Below are positions 48,125 through 54,620 of a DNA stretch of 64,000 nucleotides, one piece after another; positions within the stretch are counted from its first letter, which is position 1; the number at the start of each line of letters is the position of its first letter. This DNA comes from Trichechus inunguis (taxonomy: Eukaryota): the NCBI GenBank assembly GCA_046562895.1, contig CM102164.1, positions 32,715,842 to 32,779,841 of the forward strand, in the 5' to 3' direction. A model generated the notes under the pieces. It saw nothing but the letters and a program-made list of their open reading frames with translations, had not been told where the DNA came from and did not search any database. The position numbers and the translations under genes are program-made.

Positions 48125-51100
48125 CGCATTTTTAATTATTTGTCTTTTTGTTGTAAAGGTGTTGGATTTTTTTGTAGATTTTAGAGATCAGACTTTTTTC
48201 TGATTTGTAATGTTCAAATTTTTTTTCCCAGTCTGTAGGTTCTCTTTTTACTCTTTTGGTGGAGTCTTTTGATGGGCATTAAGTTTTTAATTTTTAGTAG
48301 AGGCCGGTTATCTAGCTTATCTTCTGGAGTTTGTGTGTTGTTATCCTGTTAATTCAGTGTATTAGGTCCTCTAGCGTTGATTCTACTTTTCCTTCTATGA
48401 ACTTTATAGTTTTTGGCTGTATGTTTAGGTCTTTGATCCATTTGTAATTAGTTTTGTATGTGATATGAGGTATGGGTTCTGTTCCTTTTTTTTGCATATG
48501 GATGCCCAGTTTTGCCAGCACCATTTGTTAAAAAGACTGTCTGTTCCCTATATGATGGACTTTGGGCCCTTGTTGAAGATCAAGTTACTGTAGGTAGATG
48601 GATTTACATCTGGGTTCTCAGTTCTTTTCCATTGGTCAATGTATCTGTGATTGTACCAGTACCAGGCTGTTTTGACTACCGTAGCTGTATAGTAGGTTCT
48701 GAGGTCAGGTAGTGGAAGTCCTCCTACTTTATTCTTCTTCTTCAGTAGTACTGTACTTATTGGGGGCTTCTTCCTTTTCCATATAAAGTTAATGATTAGT
48801 TTTTCCATCTCTTTAAAGAATATTGTTGGCATTTGGATCGGGATTGCATTGTATTTGTCGATTGCTTTGGGTAGAATTGTCATTTTCACAATGTTGAGTC
48901 TACCTATCCATGAGAATGGTATGTTTTTCCATTTATTTAGATCCCTTTGGGTTTCTTGCAGTAGTGTTTTGTAGTTTTCTTTGTATAGGTCTTTTACATC
49001 CCTGGTTAAATTTATTCCTAAGTATTTTTTTTTTTTTAGGGCTTATTATAAATGGTGTTATTTTCCTGATTTCCTTTTCATTGTTCTCTTTATTGGTGTA
49101 TAGGATTCCAACTCATTTTTGTATATTTATCTTGTATCCTGACACTCTGCTGAATCTTTCTGTTAGTTCCAGCGCTTTTCTCATGGAGTCTTTTGGGTTT
49201 TCTGTGTATAGTATCATATCATCTGCAAATAGGGACAGTTTAACTTCTTCATTACCAATTGGGATGCCCTTTATTTCTGTTTCTTGTCTTATTTCTCTAG
49301 CTAGAACTTCCAGCACAATGTTAAATAGGAGTGGTGATAAAGGGCATCCTTGTCTTGTTCCTGTTCAAGGGGAATGTTTTCAGCCTCTCTCCATTAAGAA
49401 TGATGCTGGCTGTTGGTTTTGCATAGATGCCCTTTATTACATTGAGAAATTTCTCTTCTATACCTCTTTTATTGAGAGTTTTTATCAGGAGTGGGTGTTG
49501 GACTTTGTTGAATGCCTTTCCTGCGTCAATCGAGATGTTCATGTGAATCTTATCTTTCGTCTTATTTATGTGGTGGATTGCGTTGATTTATTTTCTAATG
49601 CTGAACCATCCTTGCATACCTGGTATAAATCCTACTTGGTCATGATGTATTATTTTTTTTGATATGATGCTGAATTCTGTTGGCTAGAATTTTGTTGAGA
49701 ATTTTTGCATCCATATTGATGACAGATATTCGTCTGTAATTTTCTTTTTTTGTGGTGTCTTTTCCGGGTTTTGGTATCAGGGTTATGCTGGCTTCATAGA
49801 ATTAATTCAGAAGTGTCACTTCCTTTTCTATGTTTTGAAATAGTTTGAGTAGTACTGGTGTAAGCTCTTATTCTGAATGTTGTAGAGTTCTCCAGTGAAG
49901 CTATCTGGGCCGGGGTTTTCTTTTGTTGGCAGTTTTTTTAATGACCTTTTCAATCTCTTGTCTTGTTATGGGTCTGTTCAGATTTTCTACATCACTTTGT
50001 GTTAGTTTTTGTAGGTAGTGTGATTCTAGAAACTGACCCATTTCCTCTTCGTTTTCAAATTTGTTGGAGTACAGTTTTTGATAATACTCTGTTATGATCC
50101 TTTGTATTTCTGTTGGGTCTGTTGTAATGTCCCGCATTTCATTCTTATTTGGGTTACTTGCAACTTCTCCTCTCTTTTGTTAGTTTGTTGACTTTGTTGT
50201 TTCTTCCATTAAGAACCAACTTTTGGTCATGTTGATTCTTTCTATTGTTTTCCTATTCTCTATTTCATCTATTTGTGCTCTGATCTTTATTGTGTCCTTT
50301 CTTTTGGTTTCTGTAGTCCTTTTTTGCTGGTCTCTTTCTGTTTGTTCAAGTTGGGTAGTTAATGTTTTCATTTTGTCCCTTTCTTCTTTTTTTGATGTGT
50401 GCATCTATTGCTATAAAGTGTCCTCTGAGGACTGCTTTTGCTGTGTCCTAAATGTTTTGGTATGATGTGTTTTCATTCTCATTTGATTCTAGGAATTTTT
50501 TGATTCCATCTCTGATTTCTTCTAGTACTTAGTGGTTTGTAAGCAGAGTGTTATTCAGTTTCCGTGTAATTAACTTTTTTTCTTTACTCTTCCTGTTGTT
50601 AATTTCTACCTTGATGGTGTTGTGGTCAGAGAAGATAATTTGTATTATCTCAATGTTTTGGATTTTGTTGAGGGTTACTTTGTAGCCTAAGATGTAGTCT
50701 ACTCTGGAGAACGTTTCATGTGTGTTGCTAAAGAATGTGTAGTTGGTAGCTGTTAGGTAGGGTGTTCTATATATGTCTGTGAGGTCAAGTTGACTAATCG
50801 TGTCCTTTAAGTCTTCTGTATCTTTGTTGAGTTTCTTTTTAGATGTTTTGTCTTTTACTGAGAGTGGTGTGTTGAAGTCTGCTACTATTATTGTGGAACT
50901 GTCAGTTTCTCTTCTCAGTGCTGTTAGAGTTAATGTATTTTGAAGCCCTGTCATTTCTTGTGTAGATGTTTATTATGGTTATGTCTTCATGCTGGATCAT
51001 CTCTTTAATCATGATATAATGCCCTTCTTTGTCTTTTATGGTGGATTTTGTTTTAATGTCTATTTTATCTGAGATTAGTATTGTCACTCCTGCTCTTTTT

Positions 51101-54250: not shown

Positions 54251-54620
54251 TGTTCTTTGTCAGTTTCTTATTCCATTCGGTGCTTGGCTGAGTTGTTTAT
54301 CTCTTCATTTGATGCTTAGGCTTCCAGGATTGACATTTTTCTCTGTTTGGCTTAGTTTTTCAGGTCTTTGCTTTGGAGGGACAGCTGGTGCTTCTATCTT
54401 ATAGTACCATTTTGCCCCTCGTCACCAATTTTTCATAGACCACTCTTTTTCTCTGTTACTGTATCCCAATTACATGTCTTTAATTTTTGTCCACTGTTTA
54501 GAAAGATTGTGTGGGTAGGTTTTTAGACTGAAATTTTATGGTTTCTTGACACATAAAGTAGTAGAGATATAAATAAGTCAGAGCATTTTAAGTTATAAGC
54601 TTTTTTTTTTTTTCTTTTAG

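Follow-up and report, generated by a model that had tools for sequence, protein, structure and literature searches.

An old full-length L1 with three tandem units inside its 5' untranslated region lies antisense in a PARP4 intron of Trichechus inunguis

The PARP4 intron preceding the first VWA exon of Trichechus inunguis carries a full-length antisense L1, copy J, which spans positions 41102 to 54417 (minus strand) of the 64-kb stretch of DNA analyzed here (the window). It is larger than first reported, measuring ~7.9 kb without a nested insertion and 13.3 kb with it, and it is bounded by a poly(A) tail and a 16-bp target site duplication (TSD). The reading that we favor, and hold with high confidence, is that of an old and inactive element that was inserted by target-primed reverse transcription, whose 5' untranslated region (5'UTR) combines a YY1-type leader with three internal units inherited from the source element, and which is now inert.

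The two TSD copies are located at the poly(A) junction (41086-41101, CTTGTCACCAGTTTTT) and at 54418-54433 (CTCGTCACCAATTTTT); they differ at 2 of 16 positions and are the only two matches in the whole window at two or fewer mismatches, against 0.14 expected. Two orthologous contigs from another mammal (L006 and L007) have the empty site, joining window position 41024 to 54419, where the alignment resumes. L006 has a single copy of the target, TCTTCACCAGTTTTT/AGGGG, and the target in both contigs is a TTTTT/A endonuclease site. The poly(A) tail (41102-41140, minus strand) is seen as a T-rich run on the plus strand, with the TSD on one side and the L1 3' terminus on the other, and is preceded by AATAAA, which reads TTTATT at 41143-41148 on the plus strand. 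The tail, the TSD, and the TTTT/A target are together those of an L1 insertion, and position 54417 is the true 5' end because the TSD and the empty site fix the terminus; the termini of elephant L1s agree with it. Copy J serves as a worked example in which a TSD and an empty orthologous site establish how far an L1 extends and where exactly its 5' end lies. The original prediction had placed the element at 48125-54620, and the L1 is indeed there, represented by its 5' two-thirds, but 48125 is the breakpoint of the nested insertion and 54418-54620 is intron.

The remaining intron (54434-54620, plus strand) is not L1; it includes the polypyrimidine tract and AG acceptor, and aligns with orthologous contigs L004-L006. 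The exon that follows (54621-54817, plus strand) has ag and gtaagt boundaries, encodes the start of the PARP4 VWA domain (human residues 855-919; VWA profile positions 1-46), and matches PDB 11jf_P/9bw6 with an E value of 2.4e-24. The L1 was expected to begin close to this first VWA exon and does so, with 203 nt between its terminus at 54417 and the exon start at 54621. The designation "exon 10" does not hold as a gene exon number, since it counts exons within the window, whose first exons match human PARP4 residues ~447-714. A search with PARP4 exons returned ORF fragments only, at 78% identity or less.

The 5'UTR is 1,627 nt long and opens with a unique leader of 466 nt (53952-54417, minus strand; sense positions 1-466) that has no similarity to the units behind it. 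Its terminus is YY1-box-like, GGGGCAAAATGGT, with the box at 54414-54406: GGGGCAAAATGGTAC stands immediately after the TSD, and the G-run and CAAGATGG (YY1) box of a complete L1 5' end are both present, the box being degenerate (CAAAATGGT). A G-run followed by a YY1 box is the consensus start of nearly all mammalian L1s (PMC5381506). The first ~125 nt align with the termini of two young elephant L1s (L001 from Loxodonta and L002 from Elephas) and of a second L1 in the window at 22177, and homology to these 5'UTRs is limited to that segment.

Behind the leader, 467-1047 nt inside the 5'UTR, are three tandem units on the minus strand. In L1 sense each is a ~90-nt GC-rich segment followed by a T-rich low-complexity spacer; on the plus strand, purine-rich (A-rich) spacers part the units. 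Unit A (53371-53601, 231 nt) has a GC-rich head, a middle part, and a spacer, unit B (53602-53758, 157 nt) is without the middle part and is 70-77% identical to A, and unit C (53759-53951, 193 nt) is the most diverged, with 58-59% identity in a MAFFT alignment. An extra spacer (53272-53370, minus strand), pyrimidine-rich in L1 sense and purine-rich on the plus strand, is homologous to the spacer between units A and B. Three tandem units with A-rich spacers had been predicted from heads at 53373, 53604, and 53757, and the heads found here (53371, 53602, and 53759) lie within 2 nt of these. The unit pattern written out in that prediction holds for the units, but unit C fits it in the first ~45 nt only, though sharing the middle part of unit A.

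BLAST aligns 53272-53451 with 53509-53682 at 75% identity over 183 nt (E 4e-25). In local alignments against 500 dinucleotide shuffles the unit pairs give z values of 18 (A-B), 5.1 (A-C), and 6.9 (B-C), the observed score being reached in 0 of 500 shuffles for each pair, and five control segments of the same 5'UTR gave no significant similarity in this shuffle test. Candidates for a fourth unit at 53952 and for a further unit head before 53272 were not significant against shuffles, and the count stays at three. TRF does not call the three-unit array; together with BLAST it reports many short purine-rich subrepeats in the region. From the array to ORF1 runs a unique, tether-like segment of 481 nt (52791-53271, minus strand; sense positions 1147-1627), which abuts ORF1 and in which no similarity to the units was found. 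The GC content of the 5'UTR is 46%, with a CpG observed/expected ratio of 0.33 (0.32 in the units).

Read on the plus strand, each unit is a GC-rich body with an A-rich tail behind it, as separate A-tailed, SINE-like retroposons would be if they had landed serially, in plus orientation, in the L1 5'UTR. We give this almost no credence: the tails are themselves homologous between units, the individual units are without flanking duplications, and the unit is found nowhere else in the 64-kb window despite the many other L1 copies there. A tRNA, 7SL, or other RNA-derived origin was also considered for the units, and neither Rfam nor ARAGORN gave a match.

Unit divergence bears on the time of duplication. 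Units A and B differ by 23-30%, and C differs from either by ~41-42%, as estimated from low-identity alignments; the duplications predate the insertion, because this divergence is greater than twice the decay of copy J itself. In a short outgroup-polarized alignment of 644 columns, private substitutions in ORF1 amount to ~5.6% in copy J and 3.1% in L003, the nearest L1 relative found, which is a contaminant contig in the assembly of Pseudomonas sp. MOB-449, a manganese-oxidizing bacterium known from work on groundwater treatment. The age of copy J shows in ~6% private ORF1 substitutions, 2/16 TSD mismatches, and the nested L1 that it carries. Had the repeat arisen in the dead copy after insertion, by local tandem duplication or by an expansion like that of a minisatellite, it would be uninformative on the family; one copy only of this part of the 5'UTR is at hand, the low-complexity spacers are slippage-prone, and short purine-rich subrepeats are many. 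We nevertheless judge such a late origin unlikely, since unit divergence exceeds both twice the ~6% private ORF1 divergence and the 2/16 TSD mismatches. L003 is an independent family member whose 81% alignment with window 53278-52115 takes in the unique 3' part of the 5'UTR and the first part of ORF1. This contig stops no more than 6 nt from the repeat zone, which a break of its assembly at a repeat there too would explain.

To judge from these alignments, the source element most likely carried the triplication already. The array would then be a duplication internal to the Pol II promoter/UTR of the source L1 lineage, rather than a set of terminal promoter monomers, and the units may have had a role in what was formerly an active promoter. 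Within the 64-kb window there is no second copy of this 5'UTR type. Family ORF1 protein P0003 found no relatives as a query against genome and metagenome contigs, a six-frame translation of the 5'UTR used as a protein query gave 8,000 candidates with none at E≤1, and exact DNA patterns from a unit head and from a 5'UTR segment conserved between copy J and L003 had no match. Three features point to an Afrotherian affinity: an AfroSINE-like core, the long ORF1-ORF2 spacer, and the fact that elephant L1s give the best named ORF1 matches.

The original prediction likened the units to the monomeric promoters of rodents, in which the L1 5' end is built of tandem units, each active by itself, whose copy number sets promoter strength. 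There is some resemblance to the mouse and rat promoters (A, Tf, and Gf monomers plus tether): copy J has three tandem units of ~160-230 nt, where at least two of ~200 bp would be looked for, each with a GC-rich segment, and a unique tether-like segment then joins the array to ORF1. The unit size is similar to that of the ~200-bp mouse monomers (PMC5381506). In mouse and rat L1s, however, which are an exception among mammals, the monomer array is the very 5' end and the terminal YY1 box is missing (PMC5381506), and a YY1 site is present in the Tf monomers themselves (PMC11602158). Monomer number varies in rodents and the array replaces the YY1 terminus, whereas the array of copy J is internal, behind the 466-nt leader and its YY1 terminus. 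Nor did a motif test find an initiation signal of this kind in its units: sense-strand AARATGG is absent from all three, the sole occurrence being at the terminus (54413), and the CpG ratio in the units is the low one given above. The proposed likeness is not supported, given the internal position of the array, the YY1 leader upstream, and the lack of sense AARATGG in the units, and we regard rodent-type promoter monomers as decidedly unlikely here. Tandem units in an L1 5'UTR do not by themselves imply a promoter of that type.

The remainder of copy J is colinear with other L1s and heavily decayed. The ORF1 remnant (51724-52790, minus strand) has its ATG at 52790 and its stop at 51726-51724 and is frameshifted. 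A Pfam domain search, run on stop-masked minus-strand translations, identified in it both the RRM (Transposase_22, about 52258-52015, 22.5 bits against a cut-off of 22.4) and the C-terminal domain (Tnp_22_dsRBD, about 51969-51777, E 2e-21) of an L1 ORF1. The protein is 69% identical to family member P0003 and 45-48% identical to elephant ORF1p, and elephant L1s are the best named ORF1 matches. An intergenic spacer of 421 nt (51303-51723, minus strand), alignable with the elephant L1 spacer, leads to the ORF2 remnant (48120-51302, minus strand; ATG at 51302), which has many stops and frameshifts. ORF2 has the expected pairing of an APE-type endonuclease and a reverse transcriptase: the latter matches RVT_1 with an E value of 1e-16 (about 49382-49100), and the former gives a weak Exo_endo_phos match of 18 bits, below the cut-off (about 50936-50621), in a region colinear with the elephant L1 endonuclease. 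An antisense L1 with ORF1, the ORF1/ORF2 junction, endonuclease, and reverse transcriptase had been predicted, and the Pfam domains confirm it together with colinearity between window 52525-48120 and Loxodonta L001 6253-10717 (72.7%).

A nested insertion of 5.4 kb (42680-48119), not part of the element, divides ORF2. It has a 14-bp TSD (CTTTGCCCGTTTTT / CTTTGCGCATTTTT, at 42666-42679 and 48120-48133) and consists of a ~524-nt A-tailed sequence that is itself interrupted by another L1 (43269-47650; inner TSD ACAGGAGTTTTT). Copy J continues beyond the insertion with the end of ORF2 and the 3'UTR (41141-42679, minus strand): 42679-41446 aligns with L001 10704-11965, picking up where 48120 stops (L001 10717), and at least six further L1 copies of the window have 3' ends that match 41141-41460 at 77-83%. 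With many stops, Pfam domains in three different frames, and a 5.4-kb insertion in ORF2, the intact ORFs needed for retrotransposition are gone. Copy J is a dead copy, and the loss of its ORFs leaves its L1 family membership unaffected. In its present state it is most likely silent, inert intronic DNA.

Human L1 antisense promoters and L1-gene chimeric transcripts were reportedly described by Speek in 2001 and by Nigumann in 2002. Copy J shares the geometry of such chimeras: it is a full-length intronic L1 whose orientation is opposite to that of the gene, and its 5'UTR points toward the downstream exon, 203 nt from the acceptor. The original prediction raised the idea of chimeric or N-truncated PARP4 transcripts, and the antisense strand of the 5'UTR might accordingly be imagined as an alternative PARP4 promoter, with transcripts entering the VWA exons and possibly encoding a product N-truncated from Met857. 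Three gene-sense AAGATGG boxes are present where 0.27 are expected (P 0.0025, on motif counts noticed post hoc), although the one at 53162 has no conserved counterpart in L003, and the gene-sense strand has one consensus donor, AAG/GTAAGT, at 53496-53504. By eye, several plus-strand ATG triplets precede the exon, which weighs against the idea. Human L1 antisense promoters do make chimeras of this kind and are YY1 enriched (Criscione 2016, PMC4908685), but the antisense promoter of the 5'UTR belongs to L1HS/L1PA2-8 and is not a feature of L1s generally (PMC4908685), and copy J is much older than the L1PA2-8/L1HS 5'UTRs on which it was defined. Ancient L1s show minor 5'UTR antisense activity only, and the mouse antisense promoter is in ORF1. 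Homology of the copy J 5'UTR to that of human L1 is not expected, L1 5'UTRs being unalignable between mammalian lineages (PMC5381506).

The prior for chimeric PARP4 transcripts is therefore low, because the copy is old and CpG depleted (0.33), 5'UTR antisense promoters are lineage specific, and the 5'UTR has only ~125 nt in common with elephant-type 5'UTRs. A working antisense promoter in this 5'UTR is very improbable on these grounds. Exceedingly improbable is its co-option as a tissue-specific PARP4 promoter whose transcripts would run into the exon at 54621 and specify a VWA plus vault-binding protein with a truncated N terminus; if true, that PARP4 product would have no BRCT, PARP catalytic, or VIT domain. 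Copy J is an ordinary intronic L1 that matters little and is a case for routine repeat annotation unless PARP4 transcripts are shown, at the RNA level, to begin in its 5'UTR.

Among described elements, the young elephant L1s (L001 and L002) share with copy J a colinear C-terminal half of ORF1, spacer, and ORF2 at 73-76% DNA identity. They differ in that the copy J 5'UTR is unrelated beyond ~125 nt, the first ~250 nt of ORF1 are not alignable as DNA, and the last ~300 nt of the 3'UTR are unrelated; at the protein level, ORF1p of family member P0003 and elephant ORF1p P0001 share 52% identity over the first 221 residues. Copy J belongs to an L1 lineage other than that of the young elephant L1s. 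Long ORF1-ORF2 spacers of 423-719 bp are known from elephant, hyrax, opossum, and pig L1s (PMC5381506), and the 421-nt spacer of copy J fits with these.

Boissinot and Sookdeo (2016, PMC5381506) report no similarity among the L1 5'UTRs of mammals; they describe motifs duplicated twice in rat and hyrax and three times in horse, elephant, and opossum, and tracts rich in T in dog, cow, and armadillo. The comparison with three copies in elephant is taken from that paper only, because BLAST showed no internal repeat in the two elephant 5'UTRs (L001 and L002). If the 5'UTR type of copy J proved to be undescribed, it would be one more case of rapid L1 5'UTR turnover, a known phenomenon. Relative to the YY1-started L1 5'UTRs with duplicated motifs (PMC5381506), copy J differs in unit length, 157-231 nt with spacers against ~70-100 bp for the published motifs, and in its decayed composition, with 46% GC and a CpG ratio of 0.33 against 52-62% GC and CpG islands in most young consensus 5'UTRs (cow and armadillo are lower). 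It shares with them the conserved terminus, a long 5'UTR (1.6 kb), a three-fold internal repeat, T-rich spacers in L1 sense, and a long ORF1-ORF2 spacer, and like them, with their two- or three-fold motifs, it pairs a terminal YY1 box with a tandem repeat, here of three units. In architecture it is of a known type that has already been described, in which a 5'UTR starting with a YY1 box contains a tandemly duplicated motif and T-rich low-complexity sequence.

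Copy J, the antisense L1 in the PARP4 intron, is one insertion spanning 41102-54417, with a 16-bp target-site duplication and a TTTTT/A endonuclease site. Directly outside its poly(A) tail (41102-41140) lies CTTGTCACCAGTTTTT (41086-41101), whose sole other match in the window with two or fewer mismatches is CTCGTCACCAATTTTT at 54418-54433 (chance expectation 0.14 for the whole window). Two orthologous PARP4 contigs (L006 and L007), found via the exon ORF P0037 and carrying the orthologous exon from another mammal, align to 40622-41024, then directly to 54419-54522 and then to the exon, with a single copy of TCTTCACCAGTTTTT/AGGGGGCCACT; they are the empty site for the J insertion. 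In L1 sense J begins with GGGGCAAAATGGTACTATAAGATAGAAGCACCAGC, and its first ~125 nt, CAAGATGGC YY1 box included, can be aligned to the 5' ends of the Loxodonta and Elephas L1 loci (L001 and L002) and to that of a further L1 in the window. This type of YY1 start is conserved in almost all mammalian L1s, mouse and rat excepted (PMC5381506). The duplication, empty site, and conserved start together show that J is complete at its 5' end (54417), which is 203 nt upstream of the exon acceptor, within the few hundred base pairs of the exon at 54621 originally predicted.

The left edge had been placed at 48125, but this is the breakpoint of a nested insertion and not the L1 end, since the Loxodonta reference L001 (obtained via protein P0005) aligns at 6253-10717 with window 52525-48120 and then resumes at 10704-11965 with 42679-41446. 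The nested block (42680-48119; 5440 nt) interrupts J ORF2 and is bounded by a 14-bp target-site duplication, CTTTGCCCGTTTTT / CTTTGCGCATTTTT (42666-42679 / 48120-48133). It consists of a ~524-nt A-tailed sequence, found once in the window, itself interrupted by a 5'-truncated L1 (43269-47650) with its own duplication, ACAGGAGTTTTT. The last 320 nt of J (41141-41460), adjoining its poly(A) tail, also form the 3' end of at least six further L1 copies in the window. In five other copies (16637-17183, 22238-22787, 24360-25048, 29348-29892, and 42756-43304) the last ~125 nt of the L1 3' end occur a second time, with identical spacing in all five; in 42756-43304, the copy examined in sequence, this second occurrence comes after a poly(A) stretch and a further ~110 nt. 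The arrangement, which J and the L1 copy at 38679-39002 lack, resembles a duplication of the 3' end at subfamily level or a recurrent composite.

Pfam scanning of a stop-masked, three-frame translation of the minus strand of 48001-54700 matches the ORF1 RRM (about 52258-52015) and C-terminal domain (about 51969-51777; E 2e-21), an APE-type endonuclease (about 50936-50621), and reverse transcriptase (about 49382-49100; E 1e-16), and the ORF1 ATG (52790) and stop (51726-51724) and the ORF2 ATG (51302) can be placed on the same strand, bearing out the prediction that J keeps ORF1, the junction, the endonuclease, and the RT. J is nonetheless a dead copy, because these domains are spread over three different frames with many stops. 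The ORF1-ORF2 spacer is 421 nt, and long spacers (423-719 bp) are known in elephant, hyrax, opossum, and pig L1s (PMC5381506). The best named homologues of J ORF1 are elephant L1 ORF1 proteins (45-48% identity), and protein P0003 is much closer (69%). We note that elephant L1 ORF1 proteins are listed under host-gene names in their source records, GNB1L isoform X1 in Elephas (P0001) and NUP42 isoform X1 in Loxodonta (P0004); P0001 (L002 6001-7017) is a plain 338-aa L1 ORF1p within the GNB1L gene range.

The neighboring exon (54621-54817, + strand, boundaries ag/.../gtaagt) matches human PARP4 residues 855-919 (PDB 11jf_P/9bw6, E 2.4e-24) and positions 1-46 of VWA profiles; it is the first VWA exon. 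Its earlier designation as exon 10 is a within-window count and not a PARP4 exon number, as the window begins in exons matching human residues about 447-714. Just downstream, 54983-55047 is missing in orthologous contigs of other mammals, whose alignments skip from about 54982-54985 to about 55048, and is thus a lineage-specific insertion or fragment; we take it to be an AfroSINE-like core (gggtcgtcatgagtcggaatcaactcgatggcaac).

The antisense geometry, with the J 5' end facing the VWA exons, is real, and it was proposed that any antisense promoter activity in the 5'UTR would fire into these exons, making chimeric or N-truncated PARP4 transcripts conceivable. Three YY1-core-like AAGATGG boxes lie on the gene-sense strand within the UTR (53162, 53845, and 54189; 0.27 expected, P 0.0025, noticed post hoc), one of them not conserved in the related contig L003, together with a consensus donor, AAG/GTAAGT (53496-53504, +). 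A strong-looking acceptor, ttttatttgtttatgtcttatcag/G (52850-52875, +), was also noticed post hoc. These signals are compatible with the region serving as a cryptic exon or promoter. However, J is old and CpG-poor, its UTR shares only the first ~125 nt with the elephant-type L1 UTRs compared, and the 5'UTR antisense promoter is characteristic of the L1HS/L1PA2-8 UTR; ancient L1s have only minor activity of this kind, and the mouse antisense promoter is located in ORF1 (PMC4908685). A working alternative promoter here seems very improbable. A second minus-strand L1 (17133-22177) has a complete YY1-box terminus at about 22177 and an elephant-type 5'UTR, so that two L1 5'UTR types are present in one 64-kb window; this second copy shares 66-77% identity with L001 and lacks, through an internal deletion, the part corresponding to L001 5784 to 8157.

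Within the J UTR, BLAST against the window matches 53272-53451 with 53509-53682 (75%, 183 nt, E 4e-25), with a weaker third match at 53697-53774; a general repeat search recovers the same repeat families, and TRF does not call an array of units in the region. MAFFT alignment delimits minus-strand units A (53371-53601), B (53602-53758), and C (53759-53951), placing the predicted unit heads correctly to within 2 nt, with a middle part common to A and C missing from B. With the purine-rich spacers left out, local alignment scores (A-B z=18, A-C z=5.1, B-C z=6.9) are reached by none of 500 dinucleotide shuffles in each case, whereas the same test gives no significance for a candidate fourth unit or for two segments each from the leader and the 3' part of the UTR. 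The "at least three" units originally predicted are thus confirmed as three detectable units and no more, with one extra spacer (53272-53370). That the units are separate A-tailed retroposon insertions is unlikely, because BLAST finds no copies elsewhere in the 64-kb window, they match neither tRNA nor Rfam entries, and their tails are homologous to one another.

The closest relative of J, and the sole independent family member found, is L003, a 1149-nt contig in a Pseudomonas sp. MOB-449 assembly (GCA_024054415.1, JAMXMA010000123.1) that is evidently mammalian contamination. It aligns over its whole length (1-1149) to 53278-52115 at 81% and comprises the end of the 5'UTR plus the first 221 ORF1 codons, which are intact; the assembly record annotates it as a hypothetical bacterial protein. 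The 3' unique segment of the UTR is therefore family-typical; L003 stops no more than 6 nt from the repeat zone, and no further copies of this UTR type were found in the 64-kb window, in genome and metagenome contigs searched with the family ORF1 (P0003), with a six-frame translation of the UTR, or with exact DNA patterns. Across 644 ORF1 columns, with elephant L1s as the outgroup, 36 changes are private to J and 20 to L003, which puts J decay in ORF1 at roughly 6%. Because the divergence between units (23-30% for A-B, about 41-42% for A-C and B-C) exceeds what two post-insertion lineages could accumulate, we infer that the duplications probably predate the J insertion.

The 5'UTR is 1627 nt (GC 46%, CpG o/e 0.33) and reads, in L1 sense, as leader (1-466), units C (467-659), B (660-816), and A (817-1047), spacer (1048-1146), and unique segment (1147-1627). 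In every unit a GC-rich segment of ~90 nt leads into a low-complexity T-rich spacer, and AARATGG occurs on the sense strand only at the terminus. J is an ordinary intronic L1, full-length and dead, whose architecture is of a type already described, with three tandem units near the exon. The proposed resemblance to rodent monomeric promoters is not supported: in rodent L1s the 5' extremity is made up of the monomers and has no terminal YY1 box, whereas in J the array is internal, behind a 466-nt leader with a terminal YY1 box, and its units are not rodent-type monomers.
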